64,000 nucleotides of DNA from Saprospiraceae bacterium (GCA_044226205.1 JBGAHL010000016.1:8208-72207), one strand, 5' to 3'; positions 7,800 through 61,756 are shown, counted from the first letter of the stretch. Numbers and translations: made by a program. Notes: a model not told the origin generated them from the letters alone.

Positions 7800-7809
7800 A
7801 ACCGAACTC

Positions 7810-42011: not shown

Positions 42012-42050
42012 AAAAAAGAGCCGTCATGTCGAACATGGCGGCTCTTTTTT
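42012..42050. terminator. bidirectional rho-independent terminator
   Basis: An 11-bp stem agagccgtcat/atggcggctct (one G-U pair) is flanked by A5 and T5-6. It lies between convergent genes. Confidence 0.75.
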
Positions 42051-42068
42051 AATAGGGGACGATTCGTT

Positions 42069-43679: not shown

Positions 43680-43720
43680 TGTCAGAGGATTGTGATGTAG
43701 AATGGTTGGTTGCAATGAAT

Positions 43721-43828
43721 GTTGATTATGGTTGATAAGGGTTGATGAGGGTTTATAAAAATTGATCATTCACGAACAAAATCAACCTTTATAAACCTTT
43801 ATAAACCTTCATAAACCCTTATCAATCA
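43721..43828. repeat. hairpin element built from GGTTGATrAGG / TTTATAAACC units
   Basis: gttgattatggttgataagggttgatgagggtttataaaa lies opposite tttataaacctttataaaccttcataaacccttatcaa. The right end overlaps the stop codon of the TonB-dependent receptor gene. Confidence 0.55.
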
Positions 43829-46768
43829 ATCTTTTTTCTCAAAATTATACACGAGTGAAATGTAAGCCAGACGCCCGATCCGCGGACCGCCGTAAGTCTG
43901 GTACTGACGGTTGTCGAACATGGCGTCGAGTTTGGAGCGGCCGCCATTTTCGGCATCGCTGCGGAACAGGGGCGCAAGGCCAAAGATATTGGTAGCGCCG
44001 ATTTTCAGTACGGTATGCAGGCGTTCGAGCTCGCAGTTCCACTGGGCATCGACCATGTCGTAGGTGGGGATTTCGCCGGTAAACTGGGGCGAGCCCTCAA
44101 ACAGGAAGCCCTGGATCCACTTGTAATTTACGCTGAATCCCGTTTTTTTCAACTTGCCGATCGGCAGATCGCGGGCCGACAAACCGACATTAAATTTGTG
44201 CTCCGGCGTGTTGAATGCCGGGATGATCGGGTCATCTACGTCCAGTTTGTTCAGTTTGTTCCACGAATAGTTGCCACTCAGCTGGTAATAGTCGCTGAAG
44301 TAATAATTCATCCCGACGTTGAAGCCCTGCGTGGTCACCTGGTTGGTCGAGTTGGCTGCAACGCGATACACTTTGATGCTGGCCGGGTTGAGCACGCCTT
44401 GCGAAATAACGGCGTCGATACCGATGTTGTAGCCGATGAAGTCGTTGTAAATGTTGAAATAATACCCGCCGTCAATGTACAAACGGTTGAAAAGGGTCGT
44501 GCGATAGCCCACTTCGAAAGTTTTGACTTTCTCCGGCTGAATTGGCGGAGCGTTGAAATATTCGAACAGGTTGTAATTGTTGGCTTTAAGGCCGTCCTGA
44601 AAAGATTGCAAACTGATCAGGTTGTTGAAGCCGTCGAGATTGCCCAGCAGTGTTGCCCGGCCCACGTTCAATTGCAGGTACTGGTCGGTGAGTGTCGGGT
44701 TGCGGATGGCCGAGGAGAAGGAGAAACGAAGGAAATTCGTCTTGTTGGGCGTGTACACCACCGAGGCAGCCGGGGTGAAGAGCCAGTCGAAATTCTGGTT
44801 TTTATCCATACGTATCGTTCCAGACAGGATGAAGCGATCGTTCAGGATCTTTTTGTCCACGCCGGTGTAGAGGCCGAATTCGTAGTTGGTAATCTTGCGA
44901 TAGGAAGAATCGAGCACAACGCCTCCCGCCCCGTAGGTGCGCGTGATGGTATCGGAGAAAATAGTGCCTTCCGAGCGCGGCGTGTAGAGGCGGAAATTGC
45001 CGCCCACAACCCAGCGTTCGAGCCAAAGCGGCTGAAACTGGTATTCGCCATGCACGTGGTAGAGCGCCGATTTGTCAAAAAATCGCGTGCCGCCGTAACT
45101 GCCCGATTTGGTCTTGGTGATGCGGTCGAATTCCTGCTGAAACTCCGGTGAGCCCGGTTGAAACAGGTCGTACGACTTGGTATCGGGGCGCGTCGACTGC
45201 TTGTTGGCATATTCGAGCGCGGCAGTGTGCCAGGCCGCGAGCGTGTCGCGGTAATCGGTAAACCACTGTGTTGCCGCGGCGTCGTCGAAGGTAAAGGTAA
45301 ACGTCACCGGATCGAACACCAGTTGCGGGTAGCCGAGGGCAGCCATACGGCCCGAATAGTTTTGGGCGGCCCAGAAATTGGTGTAGTCGCCACGGAAAAC
45401 ATCGTTGCTTTTGGCTGTTTCCTGAAGGCGAAGGGCGGTGAAATAGGGGTCGTAAGAATCGCCGGCATCTTCGTTGGTGGCGTATGCGCGGATGAAAAAC
45501 TTGTCTTTCTGGCGCAATTCCAGGCGGTTCTGGAAAAACAGAATATTGCGCAGACTGAACCGGTTGTCGCCCTGATACACCGTGGTGCCGCTACCGAAAC
45601 TCGAAGCCAGAATCAACTCCGGCGATTCGAAATCTTTTGAAGGATTGAGCCGGAAATGGAAGCTGGCGCTTGCCTTGTAGTTGCGGGTGTTGTAATCTAC
45701 CAGATCCACTTCGTTGTAACCCGAACGGTGGTATTGTTGCAACCCGTAGAATTGCGCCCAGGCCGATTCTCCGGTGGCATCGAAACCTGCGTAGTACTCG
45801 TCGCCATAGCGGTTGACGGCGTCGTAGCGACCCGGGTTTTCGAGCGGGGTGAAGTAGCGGCCTGCTTCGGTACCATCGACGGGCTGGTAGTTGTCGGCCA
45901 CCCAGTCGTAGGCCCGCAGGTAGAAAAAGTTGAGTTTATAGGCAAAAACGTCGTTGCCCGATTTGTTTTTGAAGGCGTCGGCCCAGCGAATGCAGCCTTC
46001 GAAAAGATCGCGTTCGCCGCCTTTGACCGAAGCGGAAAGCCCTTTATGAATAAAAGGGTCTTTGGTTTTAATGCTGATCACACCGTTGAAGGCATTGGGA
46101 CCGTAAAAAGGCCCGCTGGCGCCGGCGACCAGTTCTACGCCGTTGGCATCGAGTTCGGAGCAGCCCAGAAAGTTGCCGAGGGAAAAGTTGAGTCCCGGCG
46201 CCTGGTTGTCCACCCCGTCGATAATCTGGAGCGAACGCACCGGACTGGTGGAGTTGAAGCCCCTCATATTGATGATGGTAAAACCGAGCGAAGCGGTGGT
46301 AAGGTCCACGCCTTTAAGGTTTCCGAGGCCGTTGTAGAAGCTCACGGCAGGCGTTTCCTTGATGGCGATGGCGTCGAGGTTTTCCACCGTCAGCGGCGCC
46401 GATTTTTGCCGGTCGTCGATGCGCTGGCCGCGAATGACGGCTTCCTCGATGACGATGGTGTTGGTTTCCAGTTTGATGGAAATGCGCTCGTCGGCGCTTT
46501 CCACAAGTACTTCCTGGGCCGTGTAGCCGGTGTACGAGATTTTCAGGGTAGCGGGCAGGGCAGGTACTTTGACAGAGAAACTGCCTTCGTAATCGGTGAC
46601 TGCACCTCCTTCCACACCGACAATCTGAATTGCTGCACCGATCAGGTCTTCTCCGCTGAGTGCGTCTTGTACTTTACCCCTTACGACAACCTGCGAAGAG
46701 GCGGAATAGGCAAAACTGAGAAAAAGAAGACTGGCAGTCAAAAATTTGTTGAATTGCTTCATACGCAT
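43826..46768 (-). CDS. TonB-dependent outer-membrane receptor with an N-terminal CarboxypepD_reg-like domain
   Basis: A signal peptide is followed by VVRGKVQDALSGEDLIGAAIQIVG (CarboxypepD_reg-like) and plug blocks (NLDAIAIKETPAVSFYNGLGNLKGV, INMRGFNS). A long beta-barrel follows. The start may be Met3 at 46762. Confidence 0.9.
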   Translation of the reverse strand: MRMKQFNKFLTASLLFLSFAYSASSQVVVRGKVQDALSGEDLIGAAIQIVGVEGGAVTDYEGSFSVKVPALPATLKISYTGYTAQEVLVESADERISIKLETNTIVIEEAVIRGQRIDDRQKSAPLTVENLDAIAIKETPAVSFYNGLGNLKGVDLTTASLGFTIINMRGFNSTSPVRSLQIIDGVDNQAPGLNFSLGNFLGCSELDANGVELVAGASGPFYGPNAFNGVISIKTKDPFIHKGLSASVKGGERDLFEGCIRWADAFKNKSGNDVFAYKLNFFYLRAYDWVADNYQPVDGTEAGRYFTPLENPGRYDAVNRYGDEYYAGFDATGESAWAQFYGLQQYHRSGYNEVDLVDYNTRNYKASASFHFRLNPSKDFESPELILASSFGSGTTVYQGDNRFSLRNILFFQNRLELRQKDKFFIRAYATNEDAGDSYDPYFTALRLQETAKSNDVFRGDYTNFWAAQNYSGRMAALGYPQLVFDPVTFTFTFDDAAATQWFTDYRDTLAAWHTAALEYANKQSTRPDTKSYDLFQPGSPEFQQEFDRITKTKSGSYGGTRFFDKSALYHVHGEYQFQPLWLERWVVGGNFRLYTPRSEGTIFSDTITRTYGAGGVVLDSSYRKITNYEFGLYTGVDKKILNDRFILSGTIRMDKNQNFDWLFTPAASVVYTPNKTNFLRFSFSSAIRNPTLTDQYLQLNVGRATLLGNLDGFNNLISLQSFQDGLKANNYNLFEYFNAPPIQPEKVKTFEVGYRTTLFNRLYIDGGYYFNIYNDFIGYNIGIDAVISQGVLNPASIKVYRVAANSTNQVTTQGFNVGMNYYFSDYYQLSGNYSWNKLNKLDVDDPIIPAFNTPEHKFNVGLSARDLPIGKLKKTGFSVNYKWIQGFLFEGSPQFTGEIPTYDMVDAQWNCELERLHTVLKIGATNIFGLAPLFRSDAENGGRSKLDAMFDNRQYQTYGGPRIGRLAYISLVYNFEKKD

Positions 46769-46932
46769 AAACGTTTGATTTCAGAAAGAAAACTAAACGA
46801 AACACCGTCTTTTCTGAAACGCTGTTTGCTTCGCAAAAGAAGAAAGAAAATTTGATTCCAAATCAAAAATGCGGGCTTTCTACCAATCCGGGCAAAATGC
46901 GGTCGATCGCCGGGATAGGTGAAAATGGGGAT

Positions 46933-47619
46933 TCACGCCGAAGTTTCCTCTTTCAGCACATAACCCTGCCCGAAAAGCGTATGGATCAGGCGTTGTCCGT
47001 AGCCCTTGTCCACTTTGTTGCGGAGGTAATTCACATAAACTTCCACCACGTTGGTGCCGGTATCGAAGCCTACGTCCCACACTTTTTCCGCGATTTCGGT
47101 TTTGGACAGCACCCTGCCGGGGTGGCGCATAAAAAATTCGAGCAAGGCAAATTCTCGGGGCGTCAGGCTGATGGGTTTGCCGGCCCGGCGCACGGCACGG
47201 CTGTACTGGTCGAGTTCGAGGTCGGCAAAGCGCAGGATGTTGTCGGGCTGGAATGTCCCCGTCGGCCGGCGCGCAAGCGCTTTGGCGCGGGCCAGGAATT
47301 CGCGAAATTCAAAAGGTTTGGTGAGGTAGTCGTCTGCGCCTGCTTCGAGGCCACTCACCTTGTCGTCGGTTTCGCCCAGGGCCGAGAGCAGCAGGATAGG
47401 GGTTTTAAGGCCCTCGCGGCGGAGCTGTCGGCACAATTCAAGTCCGTTGATGCCCGGCACGATGATGTCGGACACGATCACGTCGTACTCATTCTTGAGT
47501 GCGAGCCGCCGGCCGGTATCGCCGTCGTAGGCCATATCGACCGTCCACTGGTTTTCTTCCAGCCCCTGGCGGAGCGACTGGATGGTTTTGACTTCGTCTT
47601 CGATGAGGAGTATGCGCAT
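46933..47619 (-). CDS. OmpR-family response regulator (receiver plus winged-helix)
   Basis: Start taken at MRILLIEDE (Met8). A phospho-acceptor context (VIVSDIIVPGING) and LTKPF are present. The wHTH region is LTPREFALLEFFMRHPGRVLSKTEIAEKVW. Confidence 0.88.
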   Translation of the reverse strand: MRILLIEDEVKTIQSLRQGLEENQWTVDMAYDGDTGRRLALKNEYDVIVSDIIVPGINGLELCRQLRREGLKTPILLLSALGETDDKVSGLEAGADDYLTKPFEFREFLARAKALARRPTGTFQPDNILRFADLELDQYSRAVRRAGKPISLTPREFALLEFFMRHPGRVLSKTEIAEKVWDVGFDTGTNVVEVYVNYLRNKVDKGYGQRLIHTLFGQGYVLKEETSA

Positions 47620-47698
47620 GCAGGGGTGTGCCGTATGCAAGCAAAGTTACGAAGGCAAACGCAGTCGCGGGAAAAAGTTGGCCGAAGGGCCGAAATGC

Positions 47699-47932
47699 CT
47701 ACCGTACCATCAGGTCGTCGACTGGTCGGACGATCAGTTGATCGACCGGGATTTCCAGCGCGTTGGCAATGTCTTCGATGTGGGACAGCCTGATGTCGGT
47801 TTCTCCCGCCTCGATTTTGCTGTACGCGGGCTGGGAGATGCCCAGTTGATCGGCGATGGCGGTTTGTGAAAGTTTTTTTCTGGAGCGGATTGAACGGATT
47901 TTAAGCAACAGTTCCGAGGTGAAGGAAGCCAT
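47699..47932 (-). CDS. XRE-family helix-turn-helix transcriptional regulator
   Basis: The protein is 77 aa with the HTH LSQTAIADQLGISQPAYSKIEAGE. Confidence 0.75.
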   Translation of the reverse strand: MASFTSELLLKIRSIRSRKKLSQTAIADQLGISQPAYSKIEAGETDIRLSHIEDIANALEIPVDQLIVRPVDDLMVR

Positions 47933-48134
47933 TGGGTTCGGGTTATAAAGGTGAATGAATGTTCAACTCGGCAGGCTACAATAATACGGGGGGGAGCATT
48001 AATGATGCAAATATGCACTTGTGTTTTTTTGTAAAAGTGAAATTATAACCTGTGGTTGTTGGACTGGAACAGCAAGGAAGACATCTTTGTAAGTTAGTAC
48101 GTGAAAATGTAATCTGTAACCCTTTGCTATTTTT

Positions 48135-48761
48135 ATGAATAAGATTGTCGCTCCGTTCGTCGCAATTTTTTACCTGCTTTTGATTACTTCCGGTTGCGGA
48201 AAAAAATCAGAAGACAACACGCCGGAAATCACCTATCCGTTGTTGTTCGCCATTCAGGGCCTCGAATTTCAGCCCTCTCATTTTTATGCCCTCAATGCCG
48301 GGTCGTTTGTTGAAATACCGCCAGCGGGTTCTTTTGTTCCAGTGGATGCATTTCTGGAGCCGGAACTGGAAGATGCCGCCAGCTTCATCGAACTGGAAAA
48401 AATCGAACTGCTGGACGAGTCACAGGCCAAAATTTATTTCTTCGACAACACGGGCATTCCGGAGATAACGGCGGACTACACTTCCGACAATAATCGTATT
48501 CGTATTGTCCTGGAGCCAGGCGCCGATCCTGTGTTCTTTGACATCGATTACGAGGCCGGCACTGCCAGACTCGGTTTGGAAAGTACTTATTTCAGTTTCC
48601 ACGATTCTTCCGGCGACGTCGATTATTCTCCGCTGGATGTTGAGTTTAAAGTGCCTGGTTCTGCTGGCGACGTCATCTCGGCGCTCAAAACTCAGTACGA
48701 TTTGGCTGATGGCGACACGATCATGATTAATTGGTCCGCGGTGTTGTATAAGACGGAATGA
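48135..48761 (+). CDS. lipoprotein, unknown function (intermediate GC)
   Basis: The signal peptide with lipobox is MNKIVAPFVAIFYLLLITSGC. The mature part is acidic. No motif recognised. Confidence 0.55.
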   Translation: MNKIVAPFVAIFYLLLITSGCGKKSEDNTPEITYPLLFAIQGLEFQPSHFYALNAGSFVEIPPAGSFVPVDAFLEPELEDAASFIELEKIELLDESQAKIYFFDNTGIPEITADYTSDNNRIRIVLEPGADPVFFDIDYEAGTARLGLESTYFSFHDSSGDVDYSPLDVEFKVPGSAGDVISALKTQYDLADGDTIMINWSAVLYKTE

Positions 48762-49104
48762 GGGGTTGGGTAAGGTAAATGGTAGCAACAACTGATTTCT
48801 GAATATCGGAAGAGGGATATTTTCATTAGAGTTGTTGTATCCTAATGCGTTGATTTTCAATAGATAATGCAACTATTTTTCTTACAGATTGAAACCTTTG
48901 CATTTCAAATAAAAATCATTGTCAGTGACCTTGCCTTAAAAATCATAAAAAGTTGATTTTCATATTGCAACAAGGATAACTAAACAAGATATAACCCTGA
49001 TTCAAAGTTTTTTACTATAAATCTATCGCTGTTAAGACTCATCAATGACGAAAATTAATTTAACTTGCATATTTTAAACTATGATTTAATTGCTTAAAAA
49101 TATT

Positions 49105-50049
49105 ATGAAAGCGAATTCAAAATTACTGAGTGTTTGTAATTGGGCATTAATAGTAATCTTATTTTTTCTATTTTCATTACAAAGCTTTGGCCAAAAAGCA
49201 AAGGTCATAATTAATCAAGACCCAAACCGACCTGAGGGTTTTAGTTTTATTGATTCATTGGGCAAAGAGTCCGCTTACCTTACTACATCAGACCTCTGTA
49301 AGAGAAACCCTTATTCAAAAATAACTTTGATGCCAAGGAGCGGAGGTGTTCCTGGCAATTATCAAGCATTTGATACTGAGGGTTTGTCAGTACATCAAAT
49401 TAAGGCAGGATTAAACAATACTATAAAAGAATTTCCAATAGATTCTGTGCTTGAAAAAGCAAAAAAAATTACTGCGTCATATAATTGGTATTATGATTAT
49501 CAACATGAAAATTATCTGACAATCATATACACGCTGACAATTTATGATGAAGAATTAATTGAGATATGGGTGGAATCGGAAATAAATGTATATGAAAGCA
49601 TTGATAGGCCAATCTTGGTTTTTACAGACTATCATAATTTGCAACAAATATGTATTTCGCCTGATGGAGAGTATATGATCACGGGGCAAGTTTTGTCAAT
49701 GATTGGAGACGGGGCTTCTGATTTACCGATTGGAATGCTATTGTTTAACTTAAAAAATAAAACCTATATCGGGGCAATGCCAAATGTAATTGGGAATGTT
49801 GAACAGGCACAATACGAACAGGGTTTTTTTTTATTATATGCATATATAGATTATGATGCTTTTGTTATAAATGACAATATCCCTGTAAAGGTTGTTGTCG
49901 ATCCTGAAAATAGAAAAATTTATACAAAGAAATACAATTGGTTGGCAAGTGATCTGACAGAAGATAACCTTTTACATATAAAATCAATCTCTTTCCCTAA
50001 TGGGGAGGATATTATGACTTATAAATCAAGTCCTTTAATACGAAAATGA
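49105..50049 (+). CDS. exported hypothetical protein (AT-rich island)
   Basis: Begins MKANSKLLSVCNWALIVILFFLFSLQSFGQ (signal or anchor). The ORF is 314 aa with no recognised motif. A T9 run lies at 49824-49832. Confidence 0.5.
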   Translation: MKANSKLLSVCNWALIVILFFLFSLQSFGQKAKVIINQDPNRPEGFSFIDSLGKESAYLTTSDLCKRNPYSKITLMPRSGGVPGNYQAFDTEGLSVHQIKAGLNNTIKEFPIDSVLEKAKKITASYNWYYDYQHENYLTIIYTLTIYDEELIEIWVESEINVYESIDRPILVFTDYHNLQQICISPDGEYMITGQVLSMIGDGASDLPIGMLLFNLKNKTYIGAMPNVIGNVEQAQYEQGFFLLYAYIDYDAFVINDNIPVKVVVDPENRKIYTKKYNWLASDLTEDNLLHIKSISFPNGEDIMTYKSSPLIRK

Positions 50050-50176
50050 ATTTTTGTACTGCTATTTTTTGAGTATAATGTTATAGTTGAATACAAGAAG
50101 GAGGTGTAAATAGGCTTAATGTCCGGGGCCGCTTCTTGAAAAGGACGATATTTTTTTGGACTAATCAGCAAATTCC

Positions 50177-50443
50177 TTATCGAAGTATATTATTGTGGCG
50201 CTTGACATGGGGTTTGGCCAGATCCTGTGCTTGCCATTTGATGCCTGTTAGATCAATAATATTTTCGTGTACCTCCCAAGGATCGCTAACGAGAAACAAC
50301 GGTGATATTCTCTGGGGGCCACACTCCTTGCACTTGTACTTGGGGTTTATAGAACTATTGCTCTCGTTTTTGACGAGCTCTAATTGAGACAGTTTTTGTT
50401 CATCTACTATGTAATAGAACTTCTTACAAAGAAGTTCAACCAA
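50177..50443 (-). CDS. questionable small ORF (TTG start; single CxxC: KCKECG), possibly a gene remnant
   Basis: This is the only ORF of any length in the 483-bp gap upstream of the giant gene. There is no ATG start and no recognised family. Confidence 0.2.
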   Translation of the reverse strand: MVELLCKKFYYIVDEQKLSQLELVKNESNSSINPKYKCKECGPQRISPLFLVSDPWEVHENIIDLTGIKWQAQDLAKPHVKRHNNILR

Positions 50444-50532
50444 AAAATGGACGCTGTCGAATTTATAATTGTAAAATTATTTGTTAATACTTCATACTAA
50501 TGGTTTAATGTTTACGCCCAAAATTCGACGCT

Positions 50533-53500
50533 ATGAAAAAAATATTCCTGCTATTGCTTGCCTTTTCCTATTTTAAAGGCGTGTTTGGGCAAAATGGAAT
50601 GCTAATATCTTTGCAATATAAATTATGTAGCCAGTGCCCAAATGGTGATAACCAGTCAATTGACTACTCATATGATAATGACGCAAGCTCTTATATAACA
50701 GAAAATATAGAGAGTGATTATGATATGCGTGTTGCCGATGGTACCAGGTTTCACCAAGGGATTGATTACCTTCCTCGTAATGATTGCAGGGGAGATGCCA
50801 TCTTAAATGTAGAACAAGGTGTATGTACTGTAATGTACGTGGGGGGGGGGAACTCATCCCTTAAAAATATTGTGCTTCAAAATCAGGATGGTACACGTGC
50901 TTTTGTATATATGCATTGTTTTGTTAATGCCAATATTGGGCCTGACGGTTTGCGATCGGGAGACTTCCTAATTAAAAGGATTGATAATAGTACTGAACTT
51001 ACAATCATTAATATGAATAGTAGTCCTGTTGTTGCATATGCTAAAACTCCAAATAGAACTGTAACATACAAGCGTTATGTTAATTCAACAACTACATCTA
51101 CCGTTCAAACGACGAATCATGTAGACCCTGGTGCTATGATTGCACCAATTGGTGATTCAGGTGAGGTGCCAGGTGTACACCTTCATATTTCTCTAATTGA
51201 GAGCCCAACTCTAAATGATCCAGCCTTTCGTGGGGGGCGTGACAATAATCGATCTGTTGACCCCTGGACTGTACTAGAGCACCCTCAAACCAATTTTTTT
51301 CAACAAATACGAACTCGAAAGATTGGCAATTTTGATGCTTCAATATGTGAACATACGGGGCCTGGTACTGATAGTTGGGGTCAAATAGTACCTGATTATT
51401 CAGGCGATACTAGAAACACAATTGAAATTGAGGTTGCTCTGGATGGAGCCGCTCCAAGACCAAATGACGATTCCAGATATGCCAATAAGTGTATGGACCA
51501 AGAAGAGGTTGTTCTTGGAATTAAAAATCTCAACTTTAATTCCGATTTTTCAGTTGCAACGGGGTCGGATTTTGAATCCAAATTTATTATCAACCCAATT
51601 GGTGATAAAATTATTTACCCATTTACCATGCTACTGCCTAATGGGACTGCTTATGGCTCCCCGACAAGGAATGGAATGAGCCCATTTGCCTACCGTGATT
51701 ATATAGGGTTTCATCCTCATGACTATTATTTTGTCTCTGATTTTTATATGCGAATTAGCAAAAACGACAATCTGTTACCTGCCCCAGTTCCCCACATGCC
51801 CCCTCCTGTTTCTACTCATACCTTAGCGCAATTTCCATGGGATGCTAGATACCCGGATGGCGATTATCAGATGCGGCCAAGCATCTTAGAAGTCAATAGC
51901 TCATCATGGCAGCCAATGGCAAATCCTGTAGATTTCAAAATTGACAATTTTAAACCTTTTATTGTTAAGGTAGGATTATTTGTGGGTAATGTGACTTCTA
52001 GTAGCACACCCGCATATTATCGAGCTTGGAGTACTGATGGGGCACCTCCTGGCAGTTTACGTTTATCTGGCTTATCAGGCAAGCAGCCGTCTTCAACAAG
52101 TAATCAACCAATTACAGTTTATGTCGTCGCGAGTGAATCTATGTCTAAAGTTCGGGCATTTATCAACGGCCTAACAGGCTGGGTTGATGGAACTACATTG
52201 CCTTTTGATTCCAACGATCCTGATAGTTGGGGTCATCAAAAATGGGAATTTCAATTTGGGACCTATACTCTTGATCCAGATATCTGCTACAACATAGTTT
52301 TTGAGGGTGAAGATTTATCAGGTAACAAGTTATTGAATTTACCTCAGCCTCTTTATTGTAATACAGGGTCAAATTTAATCTTTACACCACCACATCGCAC
52401 AGGTAGTAATTCGTGGAGCAACAACTCCATAGGGCAAGGTTCTGATTGGGTACACAAGTTTCGACTAGACGATTGTGGGGGAATTTTTAATCTTAGTCCC
52501 TCTGACCCATGCATAACATCAGAAGATGTACAATATTCTCTAAAATTTTCCGAGCCCCAATCTCATACTGGTAGCATTGATATGGATATTTCGGCGAATA
52601 CTAATGGCGCCTCGTTTACCTGGAGCGACGAATCCGGAGCGGTCATAAGTAATTCGGAAGACATATCTAACTTGCCCCCTGGCGTTTACTGCATCGAAAT
52701 CCTGAAAGACTGCTGTTCGTTTAATGATTGTTTGGAAATCGGGACTTGCGCGCTTAACGTGACAGAATCGCATACCAACCCTTCTAATAATGAGCATAAT
52801 GGCGAAATCACTTTGCTCCCTGAGCAAGGAATTGAGCCTTATTCGTATCATTGGAACACGGGTGAGACCACTGATGCCTTGTTTGATTTGCCTGCCGGCA
52901 CATATACGTGTACAGTAACTGATCATGTAGCCTGTCAGGCAGTTGTCAGCATTACGCTAATTAATTGCTCACCAATTGAAGTAGAACCTCATTACACAAA
53001 TGTAGTTCAGCCTACTTCCTGCGATTCTGATGATGGTTCCTTTCGCGTCCTGTCTGTTTCTACACCAACCGGCGGCACTCCTCCATATTCCTATCATTGG
53101 GAAGATCAGGATGGGAATACTTTATCAGGTGGCCCAGTATACTCTGGTTTGGGGCCAGGGCAATATTGTATTGTTGCAACTGATGCGAATGGCTGCACTG
53201 GTACAAGTTGCTTAACGCTTCAAGCATTGAGTGATATCTATGTTTCGGAGACGATTTACCCAGCTTGTGAATTAGATTACAATGGGTCTATATCTGTTTT
53301 TGCTTCAACTTCAACGGGGGGATACTGCGATTTTTACTGGGACACTGATTTCCAAAATAATAATGATCAATTTTCAACAATAACCGGACTTGCAAGTGGT
53401 ACTTATTGCGTCACGGTTACGCCCGCTGATGAGCCCAATTGCATCACTACCAGCTGCTATGAGGTGCCATCAGTTTGGCCAGAACCCATGAACTTGTCCT

Positions 53501-56500
53501 ATAATGTTATCCATCCTTGCCCATCTCAGCATAATGGGTCAATTAATTTGACGATAACAGGAGGGTACCCGCCTTTGAAATTTAAATGGGAGGATATTAT
53601 TAATGATACGGATAATAGGACTATGTTGGGCGATGGGACATATACGGTTACTGTTACGGATTATTGCGGAAGTTCTATTTCTAAAACATTTATTTTGAAG
53701 TCACTTGAACAGCCGATGTTAGTTTCCCATCCTGGTTGCGAAGGCGAAGGTTCAATTGAATGTAATACTGTTCATGGTGGCAATTCGCCAGTTACCCTCA
53801 AATGGAGTACAGGTAGTACAAATTATGGGACAGCCGGGACCATAAATTACCTTCATTCAGGGAATTATTGTGTAACTGCAACTGAATCAGAAGGTTGCAC
53901 AAGCGTGAATTGCATAACTTTGAATAATATATGGTACACAATTTCAAAAGAAGAGCCATGTCCTGGATCTCATAATGGGTTAATCACTATTCATGTAAAT
54001 AACCCCAATGAGGGTGAGGTTAGCGCATCATTGGAAGGTGTTCAAGTTTTTTTCAATGCTCATGCTCCACAAAATTTCGATATCGAAGTTCCTTCTTTGG
54101 AAGGGGACAAAAATTACAATTTTGTCTTTTCGATAGACAATTGTATATATTCGGAGATAGTCCATCTTGCTAACTCACCGCTGGAAAAAGAATTTCTGGA
54201 ATACAATGGCGCGAACCATACATGTATATACCAAAACACCTGTAATGGAGAACCTATTCCTGGTAGTATAGTTGTTAATGATGCCGCATATAATTATTCT
54301 ATGGCAAGTGGAGGTTTCTTTGTAGGGTGTGAAATACCCGTTTCTTGTGACGGGGTACAACAGGATGTGTTGCATATCGATAAGATAACAATTCGTGCGG
54401 CTCAATATGAGCAAATACTTCTCCATGTCGCGCCACAGTATTTTAGTATAGACGTGGTTGAGTCACTACTTCAAGCATTTTATAACCAACATTTTTGCGA
54501 TTGCACATGGGTGAGATATTGCCCTGCAAATTTGGAAATAACATCTGTTATAGAAGGTCTTCCAGGGAGATGTGGCAATGCAACTCCTATTGAAGGCGAG
54601 TATGGTTGCTTTTCGTTGCATTGTGGTATTTTTGGTATAAATGATGAAAGTTTTTGTTTAGGGCAATATAGTGAAGGCTATCCAGTGAATATAATACCAT
54701 CCGTATTTGAAAATTATAATTATGAAACAACAGTTGAGGACTGCAACCCTGTAACGATTAATTTATATCAGTTAATCGTTTGGGCAAATGATTTAGATGA
54801 ATATTATCAGGATCAGGATTTTCAAAGTTCTCCATTGTACTATTATATAAATAATTACCAATCCGATCCTAGGGCTAAATGCGCAACCATTACATTTTGT
54901 TCGTCTAATTTACAGGTGCTATATTGCGATGTCGAACTTGTGAATTGTGAGGATTATGAGAATATATATCTTGATCCGGCAGATTGTAGCCATTGGGGGG
55001 ATTTATTTGGAGAAGATGATAGTCATTGTGAATATTTTTTATGTGCTGATCCAAATGAAAATAACATGTTAGCAGTTAATCATCTTGTTGCAGGAGATGT
55101 ACCATCTACTAGTTATATCCACGGCCATCTCCAAAAGGTTTGCGATGACTTTCCAGGGCACTTTTTTTCCTCGCCTGATGAAAGCGATGAAAAGCTATAT
55201 CTGGGCTATTCACCAAATGAGAGTTTAATAAACTTTGGAATAACTCGATTTCAAAATGAAATTTATCCAAAGGGGATACTTCGTGTAGGAGAAGTCGGGA
55301 TCTATTTGGACTACGCTCTTACTATGAAGTATGATCGAAAAGAAATAATTCCAAATATTTCTTATTTCGTTGACGATTGGGATAATAATCGCCTGGCTTA
55401 CGTTGAAAATGTACAAAATGGGAAATCCATATTAATGGGTTGCCAAAATAATATTTTAGATTGGAATTATGACCTTCACAGCGATAATTTCTTGTCTGTA
55501 AATTATTTTAATCAAAGAGACAGTTTTTATTTCGTGGGGGGAGAATTTCAAGGGAATCTGATGCATGGCGAGACAGTTATCGCTAGTGGAAATAACAAGT
55601 CTGGCTATCTTATGAAAATAGGTAAAGATGGCTCTACGTTATCTACTGATATATTCAGAATGCAAAACCCAAATCAGGCGTTAATTTTCGAATCTTCTGA
55701 CAATGGGATTCATGTATTAGGGCGAGGTGGGGATCAGCCTTTGTCGATAAATGGAGTGAATCAACTTGTGGCAAACAATAGCATTTTTGATTTGCTTATT
55801 ACAAATCAAGGTTTGGCAAGTGTGTATAGTAGCGTGCCATTTGACCCTACAAAGACAATTGTAAGGTCTGCCTATTCGAGTGATGGGTCATATAAAACCT
55901 TTCTCCTTCGTGATAATAATATTACGGGATCTGAGGCTAATAGCAATTTGACTATTTATACAGAGTCAACAAATGGAAATTATTGGACTGAAACAATAGA
56001 TGGTAATATAACAAACGATGACGTTAGCGTTGTGTGTTCTACTGATAGCTCTATAATTGTAGGGGTGTCTTTTCAAGGCACTTTGTCACTTCAAGATGTA
56101 GAAATTCAAAATTATGGAAGCACGGATATTGCGTTGTTGAAGTTTTCTACTAATGGTGAATTGCTGGGATATTTGAATTATGGAACGCCTGCAAGTGAAA
56201 ATATCTCCCAACTACTTGTTAATGATAGTATTGTGTATTTTGGCGGCGAATATCAATCTACGTTAGATGAACGCGCTATCGGCCGGCATAATTTCAAATC
56301 GCCTCCTAATGGTATGACAGTACCATATCTGTCTTACGTGGAGCTTTCTGATTTTCAATTAGTCAATAATTTTAAACCCAATTTGGAAAGGTCAGATGCC
56401 CCAATTAATTTGTCTCATTTGCAAATACGGCCTAATCCCTTTAATCAAAATTTCGAAATCCTTCTTGATTTAACGGAGGATTCAAATGTTCAAATTTCCA

Positions 56501-56667
56501 TATTTGATCCATTGGGCAGGGTTTTGAAAAATATATCAAGAAATGCTCCACGCGGGATATCTAGTATTTCTGTTAGTGATCTTTCTAGTTTGCCTTCTGG
56601 TACTTATTATCTCAAAGTTATTGTTGGTGGTAATCTGTGTAAAAATATATGTATAATTAAGAAATAG
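50533..56667 (+). CDS. 2044-aa T9SS cargo: M23/LytM-type metallopeptidase domain, unknown region, about 7 SprB repeats, a 20-Cys module, SBBP-like beta-propeller repeats and a T9SS type-A CTD
   Basis: The signal peptide is MKKIFLLLLAFSYFKGVFGQ. M23 motifs are HQGID (aa 74-78; His codon at 50752) and GVHLHIS (aa 214-220; His216 codon at 51178). SprB-type repeats include NGEITLLPEQGIEPYSYHWNTGETT..LPAGTYTCTVTD and DDGSFRV..GGTPPYSYHWEDQDGN..GPGQYCIVATDANGC (aa ~655-1212). The C-terminus is IRPNPFNQNFEILLDL...SGTYYLKVIVGGNLCKNICIIKK. Confidence 0.85.
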   Translation: MKKIFLLLLAFSYFKGVFGQNGMLISLQYKLCSQCPNGDNQSIDYSYDNDASSYITENIESDYDMRVADGTRFHQGIDYLPRNDCRGDAILNVEQGVCTVMYVGGGNSSLKNIVLQNQDGTRAFVYMHCFVNANIGPDGLRSGDFLIKRIDNSTELTIINMNSSPVVAYAKTPNRTVTYKRYVNSTTTSTVQTTNHVDPGAMIAPIGDSGEVPGVHLHISLIESPTLNDPAFRGGRDNNRSVDPWTVLEHPQTNFFQQIRTRKIGNFDASICEHTGPGTDSWGQIVPDYSGDTRNTIEIEVALDGAAPRPNDDSRYANKCMDQEEVVLGIKNLNFNSDFSVATGSDFESKFIINPIGDKIIYPFTMLLPNGTAYGSPTRNGMSPFAYRDYIGFHPHDYYFVSDFYMRISKNDNLLPAPVPHMPPPVSTHTLAQFPWDARYPDGDYQMRPSILEVNSSSWQPMANPVDFKIDNFKPFIVKVGLFVGNVTSSSTPAYYRAWSTDGAPPGSLRLSGLSGKQPSSTSNQPITVYVVASESMSKVRAFINGLTGWVDGTTLPFDSNDPDSWGHQKWEFQFGTYTLDPDICYNIVFEGEDLSGNKLLNLPQPLYCNTGSNLIFTPPHRTGSNSWSNNSIGQGSDWVHKFRLDDCGGIFNLSPSDPCITSEDVQYSLKFSEPQSHTGSIDMDISANTNGASFTWSDESGAVISNSEDISNLPPGVYCIEILKDCCSFNDCLEIGTCALNVTESHTNPSNNEHNGEITLLPEQGIEPYSYHWNTGETTDALFDLPAGTYTCTVTDHVACQAVVSITLINCSPIEVEPHYTNVVQPTSCDSDDGSFRVLSVSTPTGGTPPYSYHWEDQDGNTLSGGPVYSGLGPGQYCIVATDANGCTGTSCLTLQALSDIYVSETIYPACELDYNGSISVFASTSTGGYCDFYWDTDFQNNNDQFSTITGLASGTYCVTVTPADEPNCITTSCYEVPSVWPEPMNLSYNVIHPCPSQHNGSINLTITGGYPPLKFKWEDIINDTDNRTMLGDGTYTVTVTDYCGSSISKTFILKSLEQPMLVSHPGCEGEGSIECNTVHGGNSPVTLKWSTGSTNYGTAGTINYLHSGNYCVTATESEGCTSVNCITLNNIWYTISKEEPCPGSHNGLITIHVNNPNEGEVSASLEGVQVFFNAHAPQNFDIEVPSLEGDKNYNFVFSIDNCIYSEIVHLANSPLEKEFLEYNGANHTCIYQNTCNGEPIPGSIVVNDAAYNYSMASGGFFVGCEIPVSCDGVQQDVLHIDKITIRAAQYEQILLHVAPQYFSIDVVESLLQAFYNQHFCDCTWVRYCPANLEITSVIEGLPGRCGNATPIEGEYGCFSLHCGIFGINDESFCLGQYSEGYPVNIIPSVFENYNYETTVEDCNPVTINLYQLIVWANDLDEYYQDQDFQSSPLYYYINNYQSDPRAKCATITFCSSNLQVLYCDVELVNCEDYENIYLDPADCSHWGDLFGEDDSHCEYFLCADPNENNMLAVNHLVAGDVPSTSYIHGHLQKVCDDFPGHFFSSPDESDEKLYLGYSPNESLINFGITRFQNEIYPKGILRVGEVGIYLDYALTMKYDRKEIIPNISYFVDDWDNNRLAYVENVQNGKSILMGCQNNILDWNYDLHSDNFLSVNYFNQRDSFYFVGGEFQGNLMHGETVIASGNNKSGYLMKIGKDGSTLSTDIFRMQNPNQALIFESSDNGIHVLGRGGDQPLSINGVNQLVANNSIFDLLITNQGLASVYSSVPFDPTKTIVRSAYSSDGSYKTFLLRDNNITGSEANSNLTIYTESTNGNYWTETIDGNITNDDVSVVCSTDSSIIVGVSFQGTLSLQDVEIQNYGSTDIALLKFSTNGELLGYLNYGTPASENISQLLVNDSIVYFGGEYQSTLDERAIGRHNFKSPPNGMTVPYLSYVELSDFQLVNNFKPNLERSDAPINLSHLQIRPNPFNQNFEILLDLTEDSNVQISIFDPLGRVLKNISRNAPRGISSISVSDLSSLPSGTYYLKVIVGGNLCKNICIIKK
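50841..50850 (+). repeat. G10 homopolymer tract inside the M23-coding region
   Basis: The sequence is gtacgt-gggggggggg-aactc, read as V-G-G-G-N (aa 103-107). It sits in an otherwise AT-rich gene. Confidence 0.9.
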
Positions 56668-56694
56668 CAAGATATAGCAGATTGCTTATGAATA

Positions 56695-56745
56695 GGGCCC
56701 GAGAAACGGATGTCTATGTGATATTCGTTTCTTGGGCCCTTTTTT
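56695..56745 (+). terminator. rho-independent terminator after the giant gene
   Basis: A 14-bp stem gggcccgagaaacg/cgtttcttgggccc (one G-U pair) is followed by T6. Confidence 0.7.
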
Positions 56746-56772
56746 ATCTTGCTTAAATAAATATGCATCTCC

Positions 56773-56780
56773 TACATTTG
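56773..56780 (+). promoter_or_regulatory. Bacteroidota -7 box (TAcaTTTG)
   Basis: TACATTTG ends 5 nt before the ATG at 56786. Confidence 0.4.
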
Positions 56781-56785
56781 CCCCC

Positions 56786-57325
56786 ATGCCCACCCTCAGC
56801 ACCCGCCAGCTTGCCCAGCGCCTCGAACGCCTCGAAAAGGAAGATCTGGTACAGGAAATCCTGAAAATTTGCGCGCGTTTCCGCGAAGCCAAGCAGTATT
56901 GCCAGATGGAATACGGCGATGCGCCCCATCAGGAAGCGCTGCTGGCGGCCTTCAAGGACAAAATTGTCAAACATTTTTTTCCCGAACGCCGATCCCGCCG
57001 GCACCGCGCACGGACGAGCCGTCTGCGCAAAATCACCGGCGATTTCAAAAAAATAGCCGTTTTTCCCCACCACCTCGCCGACGTACTGCTGTATTGGCCC
57101 GAACAGGCCGTGATGTATCTCGACCAGCGCGGCTACGTCAAAGACACTTTTTTCCCGCCCACCGTGGCGGCTTTCGAAGAAGCCTGCCAGCTGATTGCCG
57201 ACAACGAACTGCACGATTACTTCCGCGAGCGCATCGAAAACCTCCTGCAATCGGCCGGCGCCCTTCGCGGCCGACAGGATTTTGCCGCGGCGCTCTCTGC
57301 CGCGGTTGCCCGCATCGGGTATTAA
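56786..57325 (+). CDS. conserved hypothetical protein (helical, cytoplasmic)
   Basis: Start taken at MPTLSTRQLAQRLERLEKEDL (Met19). GC is back at the high core level. No motif recognised. Confidence 0.5.
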   Translation: MPTLSTRQLAQRLERLEKEDLVQEILKICARFREAKQYCQMEYGDAPHQEALLAAFKDKIVKHFFPERRSRRHRARTSRLRKITGDFKKIAVFPHHLADVLLYWPEQAVMYLDQRGYVKDTFFPPTVAAFEEACQLIADNELHDYFRERIENLLQSAGALRGRQDFAAALSAAVARIGY

Positions 57326-57386
57326 AAGCAATCAAGCCGGCTTCGAAAAAAAAGACCGCACCTTTTGCCTGACGTCAAAATGCCGC

Positions 57387-57394
57387 TATCTTTG
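57387..57394 (+). promoter_or_regulatory. Bacteroidota -7 box (TAtcTTTG) upstream of tRNA-Val
   Basis: TATCTTTG ends 11 nt before the tRNA 5' end. Confidence 0.45.
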
Positions 57395-57405
57395 CCGCCC
57401 TCATC

Positions 57406-57480
57406 CGGAGCATAGCTCAGTCGGTTTAGAGCGCACGCTTCACACGCGTGAGGTCGTAGGTTCGAATCCTACTGTTCCGA
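57406..57480 (+). tRNA. tRNA-Val: tRNA-Val (anticodon CAC)
   Basis: A manual cloverleaf fits. The acceptor is cggagca/tgttccg (one G-U pair), the D stem gctc/gagc, and the anticodon stem cacgc/gcgtg. The loop ttCACac places U33 before the anticodon. The T arm is gtagg-ttcgaat-cctac and the discriminator is A. No CCA is encoded. Confidence 0.9.
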
Positions 57481-57488
57481 CAAATTTC

Positions 57489-57527
57489 AAGGCTAACATT
57501 CTGACCATCAGAACGTTAGCCTTTTTT
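57489..57527 (+). terminator. rho-independent terminator after tRNA-Val
   Basis: A stem aaggctaacattctga/tcagaacgttagcctt (one mismatch) is followed by T6. Confidence 0.75.
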
Positions 57528-57549
57528 ATTTTCCCTGTTTTTTATCCAT

Positions 57550-57590
57550 AAAAAAATCCCCGCGCGGTATCTGGCGACTCCTGCGCGGGG
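57550..57590 (-). terminator. hairpin terminator (minus strand) after the low-complexity protein gene
   Basis: An 8-bp GC stem ccccgcgc/gcgcgggg is present. The plus-strand A7 run at 57550-57556 becomes the trailing T-run on the minus strand. Confidence 0.55.
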
Positions 57591-57633
57591 AAAACAATTC
57601 CAGAATCAATCCTGGTAAAACCGCTACTCCTTC

Positions 57634-58071
57634 TCAGTTCTTGTTACCGCTGCTTTTGGGGGCAGCGCTGGGGGCCGGCTTGCCGGGGGGCGTTTTGGCC
57701 GTGTTGCTCGAAGAAGAGGCCGGTTTTTTGTGCGTGGTATGGCGTTTTTTCATGCTTTTGCATGTGCCGGACGTCGATTTGGAGCCCGTCGAAGCCGACT
57801 TGGCGGAAGTCGAGGCCGGTTTGGCAGAGGCCGGCGCAGGCTTGGTGGAAGCAGATTGCGGCTTGGCGGTAGCCGAACCCGTGGCCGGATTTTGGGTGGG
57901 GGCTTTGCTTACTGCGGGCGTCTGGACGGCGGAACTGACGCCGGGAGATTTGCTCAGCGAGGATTGCGTCGCAGTTGGGCGCGGTTTCTGGGTATTGTTG
58001 GCGGCGGGCGTTTGGGCATAAACACCGGCGACGAACAAGCTCAGGAAGCAGGCAAAGAGGGTCTTTTTCAT
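57634..58071 (-). CDS. secreted low-complexity Ala/Ser/Pro/Lys/Thr-rich basic protein
   Basis: Start taken at MKKTLFACFLSLFVAGVYAQ (Met25). The rest is compositionally biased (AKPASTSAKSASTGSKSTSG...). Coding status is plausible but not certain. Confidence 0.45.
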   Translation of the reverse strand: MKKTLFACFLSLFVAGVYAQTPAANNTQKPRPTATQSSLSKSPGVSSAVQTPAVSKAPTQNPATGSATAKPQSASTKPAPASAKPASTSAKSASTGSKSTSGTCKSMKKRHTTHKKPASSSSNTAKTPPGKPAPSAAPKSSGNKN

Positions 58072-58173
58072 AGGAATGACATTGAATGTTGAAAAAATGT
58101 TGTTGGACTGCGTCGGCATCCCTGAATCGGATGACTGGTACAAAAGTGCGGTCCGGGCATTCCCCGAGAAAGC

Positions 58174-58201
58174 AAAAACCCCGACAGGCGGGCAGTCGGG
58201 G
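58174..58201 (-). terminator. hairpin terminator (minus strand) after the LytS/LytTR pair
   Basis: A stem ccccgac/gtcgggg has a 9-nt loop. The plus-strand A5 run precedes it, which gives a T-run after the hairpin on the minus strand. Confidence 0.5.
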
Positions 58202-58240
58202 CTTTGAAACAGGCAAAACGGCGCCTGAAATTTCGAGGCG

Positions 58241-58996
58241 CTACATCCGTTCCATCCAGCGCAAAAAATCGCCGGCTTTGGCCTTGCTCACGACAAGCGC
58301 GTCGCGGGTATTCACATTGAGTTTGAGCAGGAGTTTTCGGGCAAAATATTGCTGCACCTCCTGTACTGCCTTGAAATTGACCAAAAACTGGCGGTTGGCC
58401 CGGTAAAACTGATCGGGATCGAGGCTTTGCTCCAGTTCTTCCAGCGTGAAATTCACGACGAAACGCCGCCCGTCGAAAGTGTGCAAAAACGTGACTTCGT
58501 GCTCGATATGAAAATAGGCCACGTCTTCGGCCGCGATGGGCAGAAGCCGGTCGCGCTGACTGACCAGAAAGGTGTTTTTTCGCGCCGCGGGCCGGACGCC
58601 GGCGGGCAGCCGCTCACCCGCGACCCTGTGCTGAAAATAATTCTCCAGCCGCCGCACCTTGTCGAGCGCCCGGGCGATGGCAGACCGGTCGAAGGGCTTG
58701 AGCACGTAGTCGATCCCATTGGTCTGGAACGCCTGAAGCGCATATTCGTCGAAAGCCGTGCAAAACACCACCGGGCACTTTACCTCCACCTCTTCAAACA
58801 CGTCAAAACTGCTTCCATCGGCCAGTTGCACGTCAAAAAACGCCAGATCGGGCGGGGGCTGGGTTTGAAAAAAACGCACAGCCGCCGCTACCGTGTCGAT
58901 CACGGGCAGAAACATGGCTTCCGGCTCCAGTTCAAACAGGGTGGCCTGCAGATCGAGGGCCGTGCGGTATTCGTCTTCAATAATCAGGATTTTCAT
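58241..58996 (-). CDS. LytR/AlgR-family response regulator (receiver plus LytTR DNA-binding domain)
   Basis: Begins MKILIIEDE. An acceptor context (LAFFDVQLADGS) and YVLKPF are present. The C-terminal LytTR-like region is FHIEHEVTFLHTFDGRRFVVNFTLEELE. Confidence 0.88.
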   Translation of the reverse strand: MKILIIEDEYRTALDLQATLFELEPEAMFLPVIDTVAAAVRFFQTQPPPDLAFFDVQLADGSSFDVFEEVEVKCPVVFCTAFDEYALQAFQTNGIDYVLKPFDRSAIARALDKVRRLENYFQHRVAGERLPAGVRPAARKNTFLVSQRDRLLPIAAEDVAYFHIEHEVTFLHTFDGRRFVVNFTLEELEQSLDPDQFYRANRQFLVNFKAVQEVQQYFARKLLLKLNVNTRDALVVSKAKAGDFLRWMERM

Positions 58997-60042
58997 GATC
59001 GAGCCGGTATGATGGGCAAGCGTACGACAAAATACTTGTCCGATTTTTCAATAGAAATTTCCTGCCGGGTGAGCAGATAATAGCGCCGGCTGATGTTGGC
59101 CAGGCCGATGTGCGCGCCCTCGTCGGTCGAGCGCCGGGGCTGCAGATTGTTGCGGACAACCAGTTGCTGCCCTTCTGCAAAAAACTCGATTTGCAGGGGC
59201 GCATCGTGGCTGACGACATTGTGTTTTATGGCGTTTTCAACAAGCATTTGAAGCGTAAACGGGGGGATGGCACTCTGCAACAAGGCGGCGTCGATCCGGC
59301 GTTCGAACCGGATTTTGTCTTCAAACCGCGCTTTTAACATAAATAAATAGTGATCGAGCGCGGTTAGTTCTTCACTCAGCGTGACTTTTTCCCGCCGCTC
59401 TACCGCCAGCAGGCCGCGATACAACTCGGCCAGCCGGACGACGTATTCCTCGGCTTTCCCATCGTGGTTTTTGACGAGGGTTTTCAAAATGTTGAAGGAG
59501 TTGAATAAAAAATGCGGGTTGACCTGCTGTTTGAGCATCTCGAATTGCGCCAGCGCGTTCTCGTGCTCAAGCCGCTCATTTTCCCAGCGGGTTTGATAAA
59601 AACGTTTGACCGTGTCGAGCAAAAAAGCCAGTAAAACCACTGCCCCGGCGACCAGCATGGCCCTGAATTCGTTGGAATATTCCGGGTAGGCATAATCCTC
59701 CAGCGTGGAGTCTATTTGTAAAATTTGAAGGCGTTCATCGAGCCAAACGACCAGAAATCCGGTCAAAATCGTGCTGCAGGCGCGTACCAGCGCCTTTGAA
59801 CTGTACGTGTTGTGTCGCAGAAAAATGCGCTCCAGCGCCGGGAAGGCGCTGAGGTTGTACCACCACATCAGCCCGGTGTACAAAAGCCCGAACAGGGCTT
59901 CGCGCCAGTAGGCCGTGGTGTCGAACCCCTTGCGGAAAATCGCCCCCATGCCGAAAAGCAAGGCGACCAGCAGGGTGCTGCCGGCCGCAATCCGCCAGTA
60001 AAATCGCGGGCTGATCTGCCGCATTTTTTCAAGTCGAGGCAT
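58993..60042 (-). CDS. LytS-type sensor histidine kinase (His_kinase / 2TM-5TM family)
   Basis: Several N-terminal TM helices are followed by QQVNPHFLFNSFNILKTLV and an ATPase region (ENAIKHN). The gene overlaps the response-regulator gene by 4 nt. Confidence 0.85.
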   Translation of the reverse strand: MPRLEKMRQISPRFYWRIAAGSTLLVALLFGMGAIFRKGFDTTAYWREALFGLLYTGLMWWYNLSAFPALERIFLRHNTYSSKALVRACSTILTGFLVVWLDERLQILQIDSTLEDYAYPEYSNEFRAMLVAGAVVLLAFLLDTVKRFYQTRWENERLEHENALAQFEMLKQQVNPHFLFNSFNILKTLVKNHDGKAEEYVVRLAELYRGLLAVERREKVTLSEELTALDHYLFMLKARFEDKIRFERRIDAALLQSAIPPFTLQMLVENAIKHNVVSHDAPLQIEFFAEGQQLVVRNNLQPRRSTDEGAHIGLANISRRYYLLTRQEISIEKSDKYFVVRLPIIPARS

Positions 60043-60106
60043 GGTGCGAAATTAGGGGGATTTTGGCAGGCATGGGCAATTTTGGCCCATGCCTGCCGGC
60101 TGTCGC

Positions 60107-61615: not shown

Positions 61616-61756
61616 GACAGTTACGCTTATTGTTGTGGTTATGGTTCTTGTCCACAAAAAAGCGCAAACCTGCCAGCCCATTTCAAGCGACTTTACGTTA
61701 AAACAGGCCAAAAAGAGGTTAAAGCGGGCAATTTTTAACCTGATTGTAAAAACCTG

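Follow-up and report, generated by a model that had tools for sequence, protein, structure and literature searches.

An uncultured Saprospiraceae bacterium of activated sludge provided the 64,000-nt stretch of DNA analysed here (GCA_044226205.1, JBGAHL010000016.1:8208-72207; hereafter the window, with positions counted from its first letter). Positions 48766-56776 of the window form an AT-rich block that is probably a replacement-type flexible genomic island (fGI), in which alternative cassettes are exchanged by homologous recombination. The slot is bordered by an orphan lipoprotein gene on the left and a DUF6155 gene on the right, and co-occurring strains appear to hold different, deeply diverged AT-rich cassettes in it. 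The cassette of the window is predicted to be one operon-like module of two genes, encoding (i) an exported protein of 314 amino acids (aa), termed here the partner, and (ii) a 2044-aa type IX secretion system (T9SS) cargo protein, termed the giant protein, whose type-A sorting domain would display it on the cell surface. Cassettes would be swapped between related clonal lineages via recombination in the conserved flanks, with no integrase or transposase taking part. The direct evidence consists of the composition of the block, its boundaries, its absence from sister species, an alternative allele, a peak of substitutions at the boundary, the linkage of the two genes and the presence of transcripts.

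An alternative cassette in near-identical strains

A 2.25-kb Logan contig (L009) that bears the lipoprotein in a 99%-identical form departs from the window by 1 mismatch over 46834-48661 (1828 nt), enters a short peak of substitutions (Table 1) and then has no similarity to the window from 48766, 4 nt past the lipoprotein stop codon. The peak includes ten coding changes, of which 7 are synonymous and 3 conservative. A JGI contig (L012) and a second Logan contig (L030) carry the same variant and add 1.3 kb to it; these two, together with contigs in the sequencing runs X5 and X8, have the same 11 substituted positions. The lipoprotein gene is identical up to 48661 in strains bearing either cassette. 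The presence at the same site of a cassette with a distant homologue, joined to a boundary peak in a near-identical strain, points to allelic replacement by homologous recombination.

Similarly to the block of the window, the alternative cassette is AT-rich (37% G+C, with a G+C content at third codon positions, GC3, of 0.35 in the first gene). This first gene encodes a 327-aa exported protein that is homologous to the 314-aa partner, with 22% identity over 254 aa (E 4e-5) and a C-terminal VVVDPxNRK motif in both. The second open reading frame (ORF), 89 aa up to the contig end, has no similarity to the giant protein. An exact-protein look-up for a longer version of the cassette gave contigs of 1.5-1.6 kb only, and a homologue search returned the query alone. 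The JGI and Logan contigs end at the same base (L012 position 1603 is the end of L030), which suggests that the assembly graph branches inside the alternative cassette, either at further strain variation or at a repeat.

On the right side, an X6 contig matches the window from 56777 only and has 628 nt of unlike sequence ahead of this position, and an X8 contig begins at 56777. Of the 9 differences between the X8 contig and the window over 56777-57455, 8 fall within 64 nt (56950-57013) of the DUF6155 gene, about 175 nt from the edge.

The two forms share habitats. Among the JGI contigs, those of the window form (L010 and L011) and that of the alternative form (L012) derive from the same or similar metagenomes, L011 and L012 sharing one, and each of runs X5 and X8 contains both forms. 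An empty site was not found, in that no contig joins the flanks across 48766-56776 in 11 runs; a joint of 48295 to 53352 in X2 was treated as spurious (depth 2.7, with a 20-nt side). A third variant is noted in X15, in which the sequence after the lipoprotein gene (48766-48795) resembles the window form with 3 mismatches in 30 nt; thus, diverged copies of the window-type island exist.

The window-type island is found at 98.9-100% identity in activated-sludge and wastewater runs of at least 6 studies; the contig index lacks an entry for the exact 2044-aa protein. In several of these runs the flanks depart further from the window than the island does. In X11 the island differs at 4 of 2046 nt and in X7 at 1 of 1535 nt, compared to 9 of 562 nt and 12 of 622 nt, respectively, for the right flank, a comparison that is suggestive, the contigs being unphased and of low depth. 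The boundary peak and the near-identity of the island across many samples are the grounds on which exchange by recombination is inferred.

Composition and limits of the block

The G+C content of 48766-56776 is 37.8%, compared to 55.6% for the remainder of the window. In 500-nt windows, the profile runs at 0.30-0.45 across about 48750-56750 and at 0.53-0.63 on either side (mean 0.382 inside the island; mean 0.556, standard deviation 0.045, outside), and to the right of the island it is back at 0.56 inside one such window. Milder dips (0.47) occur at 6001-8000 and 43500-44000. The GC3 values of the partner ORF (0.269) and the giant gene (0.311) fall below those of 13 host genes (0.57-0.74), whereas G+C at second codon positions (GC2) is about 0.40 in island and host genes alike; thus, the drop is not accounted for by amino-acid composition. 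AT-richness extends to the intergenic spacers of the island (G+C of 0.29 and 0.37). The tetranucleotide distance of the island from the rest of the window is 0.0516, compared to 0.0103±0.0014 for eleven 8-kb control segments, placing the island about 29 standard deviations off, and the GC-normalised tetranucleotide correlation with the rest of the window is 0.444 for the island and 0.911±0.048 for the controls. Two other T9SS cargo genes of the window, at 42069-43769 (with a type-A C-terminal domain, CTD) and 61988-63994 (type-B, CHU_C), are of host composition; low G+C is therefore not general to T9SS cargo genes in this DNA. These two genes also lend indirect support to the host having a T9SS.

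By strain comparison, the island edges are located at 48765/48766 and 56776/56777. The similarity of L009, L012 and L030 to the window ends after 48765, where an X7 contig also stops, and the homology of a sister-species locus (L001, described below) picks up again at 56771. A boundary search found no direct or inverted repeats of note and no att-like sequences. No RNA family was detected in the island by Rfam search, and sigma-70 promoter matches were discounted as not meaningful in AT-rich Bacteroidota DNA.

An earlier sequence-only reading of this DNA had proposed an AT-rich block of about 8 kb, of foreign composition, in a chromosome of about 60% G+C. The block and its foreignness are borne out by the computed G+C, GC3 and tetranucleotide profiles; the host value is not, as it is computed at about 56%. 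The contents assigned to the block (an exported 314-aa protein, located here in an ORF of 319 aa, the 2044-aa T9SS cargo gene and an 88-aa ORF regarded as doubtful), its terminator and the nearby tRNA-Val were all located, and the lack of a convincing flanking repeat was confirmed by the boundary search. The neighbouring lipoprotein gene is intermediate in composition, as that reading had stated, but it is not part of the island and instead forms the conserved left flank.

Homologues, origin and the case for a mobile element

The homologue search that the sequence-only reading had called for found the recognisable relatives of both the partner and the giant protein to be almost all in Saprospirales/Saprospiraceae. 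The best homologue of the giant protein is just 38% identical, and a donor can therefore not be named. A profile search gave 14 genome loci, 12 of which are in metagenome-assembled genomes (MAGs) of Saprospirales/Saprospiraceae; the other two, in a Bacteroidales MAG and a Lentimicrobiaceae MAG, are distant (25-26% identity). Several genomes have two or three copies of the family gene. In most hosts the giant gene is GC-poorer than its flanks, by 0.04-0.14, and some hosts are themselves low in G+C (0.38-0.44), with family members whose GC3 of 0.25-0.30 is like that of the island (L014, L016, L019, L023). As the relatives are almost all in Saprospirales/Saprospiraceae and some of these are low-GC, a gene pool within the family is indicated as the source. 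The low G+C of the island would thus stem from the origin of its cassettes in, and their traffic through, a flexible Saprospiraceae gene pool that includes low-GC lineages.

The foreign composition of the block, its absence from three sister species, a tRNA-Val gene 0.6 kb to the right and the low-GC relatives of matching GC3 are also what would be expected had the block been inserted once by a mobile element (an integrative island, an integrative and conjugative element (ICE) or a phage remnant) that came from a distant low-GC donor among the Bacteroidota and of which the integrase and att sites later decayed. This explanation, which was favoured by the sequence-only reading, is unlikely. None of the three ORFs of the island has an integrase, transposase or recombinase domain, no pseudogene of an integrase or transposase is present, and the 483-bp and 328-bp spacers are non-coding; flanking repeats are lacking, and plasmid and phage searches with the island gave no match. 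The earlier statement that the block is devoid of mobility genes is thereby upheld by ORF inventory and by domain, plasmid and phage searches. The tRNA-Val gene is 630 nt from the island, with a syntenic core gene, that for DUF6155, in between; it is a neighbour and not the insertion site, in agreement with the earlier remark that another gene separates it from the block. A deeply diverged, homologous cassette occupies exactly the same site between near-identical flanks, with a boundary substitution peak, and nothing requires a mobile element whose functions were lost. The proposal of a distant low-GC donor is not supported by the distribution of the homologous loci, 12 of 14 being in Saprospirales/Saprospiraceae MAGs and some of these low-GC. 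Cassette replacement within a Saprospiraceae pool is more economical than a decayed mobile element from a distant donor.

Sister species without the block

A query with the DUF6155 protein retrieved four Saprospiraceae MAG loci (L001-L004). The block is absent in L001, L002 and L003, where the distance from the response-regulator side to the DUF6155 gene is 0.3-0.45 kb; a synteny comparison proposed with the earlier reading thus finds the flanking genes adjoining in three sister-species genomes. In L001 (about 84% nucleotide identity), the regions 42016-48062 and 56771-61744 are collinear with the window, and 334 bp stand in place of the intervening 8.7 kb. In L002 and L003, the response regulator and DUF6155 genes are 0.45 kb apart and the gap is occupied by an unrelated 116-aa gene (L002 9571-9921 and the same position in L003, minus strand), which indicates that the slot turns over at deeper evolutionary levels as well. 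The upstream context of L004 differs.

L001 retains a decayed 5' remnant of the lipoprotein gene at 9729-9881, composed of the start codon, signal peptide and lipobox Cys followed by a stop (TAA), with an alignment score of 34.5 compared to 12.7±1.8 for shuffles. The remnant lies directly upstream of the DUF6155 promoter region, and the next 126 bp match nothing in the window. Thus, the lipoprotein gene is older than the split from L001 and is outside of the foreign block.

The remnant sits exactly where deletion of the island would leave one, as would be expected if the block were an ancestral resident locus, kept AT-rich by selection or local mutational bias (for instance for expression control, or owing to the character of the giant repeat protein), whose genes were lost from the sister species. 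That most other hosts, too, have family members of lower G+C than the flanks, and that the block is transcribed in situ, also fit such a history, and lend some support to the alternative that the sequence-only reading had allowed for, of a gene kept AT-rich for other reasons. As an account of the whole block, however, it is very unlikely. The GC3 and intergenic G+C are very low where GC2 is normal, the GC-normalised tetranucleotide correlation is 0.44 compared to 0.91 for the host, other T9SS cargo genes of the window are at host G+C, and the slot of L002 and L003 is occupied by an unrelated gene. Alleles that lack nucleotide similarity between flanks of 99.9% identity are, moreover, impossible by vertical descent in one lineage. 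An assembly or binning artefact, in which an AT-rich contig of another organism was misjoined to a high-GC Saprospiraceae scaffold, might be suspected of MAG-type sequence from a complex sludge community in which the assembly graphs branch at both island edges, but is effectively refuted by X2 contigs of 11.0 and 10.9 kb (about 150x) that cross both junctions with 0 differences and uniform depth, and by 100%-identical contigs that cross the left junction (JGI L010, 47481-49156, and L011, 48485-50352) and the right junction (Logan L027, 50930-61841, and L028, 54767-60091).

The giant protein and its partner

The giant protein begins with a signal peptide, MKKIFLLLLAFSYFKGVFGQ, read from the translation. 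Its SprB repeats match Pfam at E 2.8e-12, above the curated cut-off, and its CTD matches TIGR04183 (E 8e-13, 48 bits with a cut-off of 23) and Por_Secre_tail PF18962 (E 1e-10), on which basis the protein is predicted to be displayed on the cell surface. The N-terminus scores 25.1 bits against Peptidase_M23 of Pfam, under the cut-off of 28.7, and includes the two motifs that serve zinc binding and catalysis in these enzymes. Of these, H74-x3-D78 is near-invariant across ten homologues of 30-38% identity and invariant in six-sequence N-terminal alignments, and H216-x-H218 is invariant in all of the homologues aligned. When the family profile was compared to the Protein Data Bank (PDB), the M23 structure 5kqb was retrieved at E 0.0023 with both motifs aligned, whereas searching the PDB with the first 500 aa as a single sequence yielded no match. 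An AlphaFold2 (AF2) model of residues 1-470 was too poor for a fold search, with a predicted local distance difference test (pLDDT) score of 41. M23 peptidase activity is thus a prediction from sequence motifs. A homopolymer of ten G residues (50841-50850) lies within the AT-rich M23-coding region; length variants of this tract were not observed in contigs of 11 runs or in independent contigs, which are assemblies that drop rare variants.

The ORF of the partner is 319 aa from a TTG at 49090, and the gene probably starts at the ATG at 49105 to give 314 aa. The protein has no Pfam or NCBIfam match and belongs to a small family (10 proteins at E<=1e-10 among 1.84 billion representatives). Its AF2 model is mostly beta, with a pLDDT of 86.7. 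Fold search with the model gave weak, isolated matches to propeller blades with template modelling (TM) scores below 0.3 and E above 1e-3, and no fold was assigned on these values. The giant gene has a same-strand member of the partner family directly upstream in 10 of 10 scorable loci (11 genes), scorable loci being the homologous ones that had upstream sequence and a hit. Thus, the two genes form a conserved module, which is a previously unnamed, tightly linked pair almost confined to Saprospirales.

The 483-bp spacer between the two genes has stops throughout all six frames, and tblastx against the homologous loci finds nothing in it. Two ORFs of 88 aa and 83 aa in this spacer were rejected as genes, the former having no Pfam match and neither having a coding signal; a coding signal was detected in neither the 483-bp nor the 328-bp spacer.

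In the metatranscriptome X5, the XRE and lipoprotein genes are covered by contigs, as are both cassette forms, the spacer (by contigs spanning 49808-50314 and 50366-51234) and several parts of the giant gene; none were found over the response regulator, the DUF6155 gene or the tRNA (46901-47301 and 56926-57727). The coverage of the cassettes without the flanking core genes argues for real transcripts, with DNA carry-over possible, and suggests that the variable module is relatively highly expressed in situ.

The likely driver of cassette exchange would be selection, diversifying or frequency-dependent, that acts on a giant surface protein exposed to the outside; the selective agent could be recognition by phages or grazers, or the specificity with which other bacteria are bound or lysed. 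A more specific and doubtful proposal is that the module is a T9SS-delivered bacteriolytic effector, in which an M23 peptidoglycan endopeptidase would be borne on a giant surface stalk, the producer would be protected or chaperoned by a cognate partner in the periplasm as the cargo passes through, and the pair would be diversified by co-existing strains in the manner of polymorphic toxin-immunity loci. If so, the island would serve epiphytic or predatory Saprospiraceae of activated sludge as a weapon, or a determinant of attachment, that is specific to the strain.

Flanking genes and other features

The features of the locus are listed in Table 1. The response regulator gene is syntenic in L001, L002 and L003 and in strain contig L009. 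The XRE gene is kept in L001 (9300-9545) and L009 and is absent from L002 and L003. The lipoprotein is matched by neither Pfam nor NCBIfam; a single further cluster, of 99% identity, was found among 5.8 billion proteins, and no relative was found by genome contig search. On the right, the DUF6155 gene is syntenic in L001-L004, with 77-89% aa identity. Beyond the tRNA-Val gene, a sub-threshold Rfam match to the anti-hemB small RNA (57550-57671, minus strand; 23.9 bits compared to a gathering threshold of 49.5) is most likely due to chance.

Table 1. Features of the slot and its surroundings, in window coordinates.
Feature	Position	Strand	Basis or remarks
OmpR-type response regulator gene	46933..47640	-	Pfam Response_reg and Trans_reg_C; conserved core gene left of the slot
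XRE-type HTH regulator gene, 77 aa	47702..47932	-	Pfam HTH_3, E 1e-13
Orphan lipoprotein gene, 208 aa	48135..48761	+	Conserved left flank (homology arm); GC3 0.55
Substitution peak at left boundary	48662..48765	+	11 mismatches in 104 nt compared to L009
AT-rich island, probably of replacement type	48766..56776	+	8011 bp, 37.8% G+C; strain-contig breaks and composition
Exported beta-rich partner gene, 314 aa	49105..50049	+	Signal peptide in translation; no Pfam match
AT-rich spacer, 483 bp	50050..50532		No convincing gene; includes doubtful 88-aa ORF at 50177-50443
Predicted T9SS type-A cargo gene, 2044 aa	50533..56667	+	Signal peptide, M23-like motifs, SprB repeats, Cys-rich module, C-terminal sorting domain
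Intrinsic terminator closing the island operon	56695..56739	+	20-pair stem with 10 G-C pairs, then TTTTTT
DUF6155 gene	56786..57325	+	Pfam DUF6155, 1.5e-17; conserved right flank
tRNA-Val(CAC) gene	57406..57481	+	ARAGORN; Rfam 69 bits

Points that weigh against cassette replacement

Several points temper the interpretation of the block as a replacement island. Functional equivalence of the two cassettes is shown for one gene only, as only 1.3 kb of the alternative was recovered and no resemblance to the giant protein is seen in its second ORF. For the alternative form, the right junction is seen only as contig breaks and unlike sequence, and the metagenome contigs are unphased and mostly of 2-8x depth. 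Linkage over a long time to an old balanced polymorphism, and not a recent exchange, could lie behind the boundary peak. An island may already have been present in the common ancestor with L001, which retains only the lipoprotein remnant. The search for mobility genes covered the window, and copies of the module or mobility genes may be present elsewhere in the genome. Finally, the surface display and peptidase activity of the giant protein, on which the proposed selection would act, are read from its sequence.

Comparison with known systems

The phenomenon is known in kind; it is a familiar form of genome variation, of which the block is a new example. Replacement fGIs have been described with peaks of mostly synonymous substitutions at their boundaries and with genes for surface structures, as exemplified in Alteromonas, Pelagibacter and Haloquadratum by islands for O-chains or giant surface proteins (PMC4033161; Lopez-Perez, Martin-Cuadrado, Rodriguez-Valera 2014). 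Similarly to these, the island of the window has a fixed position between conserved genes, and the cassettes of co-occurring close strains have little or no similarity. Its genes are for a surface structure that is predicted to be exposed, its G+C is atypically low and mobility genes are absent; the boundary peak is mostly synonymous, and the island is near-identical across samples. By contrast to the described replacement fGIs, the island is small (8 kb, two genes) and is from a wastewater Saprospiraceae bacterium, and its cargo is a T9SS-secreted giant protein with M23-like and SprB-repeat regions and a dedicated partner rather than a glycosylation cluster. One alternative allele is partly known, and the evidence is from metagenome contigs and not complete genomes.

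With tRNA-linked integrative islands, ICEs and prophage remnants, the block shares a foreign composition, absence from relatives and a tRNA gene nearby; it differs in that an integrase and direct repeats are lacking, the 3' end of the tRNA is not the place of insertion, and the alternative homologous cassette occupies the same site. Thus, when a high-GC member of the Bacteroidota has a sharply delimited AT-rich block devoid of mobility genes, this need not be a decayed mobile element, and may instead be an allele of a surface-protein slot that varies between strains and is maintained by recombination. To wastewater microbiology, the slot offers a transcribed, strain-discriminating locus in an abundant Saprospiraceae population, and the gene pair may bear on the attachment of Saprospiraceae to, or their attack on, other cells.

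Like SprB of Flavobacterium johnsoniae and its paralogues, the giant protein is very large, with SprB repeats and a T9SS C-terminal sorting domain. However, its CTD is of type A (TIGR04183), whereas that of SprB is of type B, and it has an N-terminal M23-like domain and a Cys-rich module, is strictly linked to the 314-aa partner upstream, and is not accompanied by sprC/sprD-like genes. Similarly to M23 endopeptidases of the LytM/lysostaphin type, the HxxxD and HxH motifs are conserved and are covered together by a weak profile match. Unlike these enzymes, the giant protein scores under the Pfam gathering threshold, has a long insertion between the two motifs and yields an AF2 model of low confidence (pLDDT 41).

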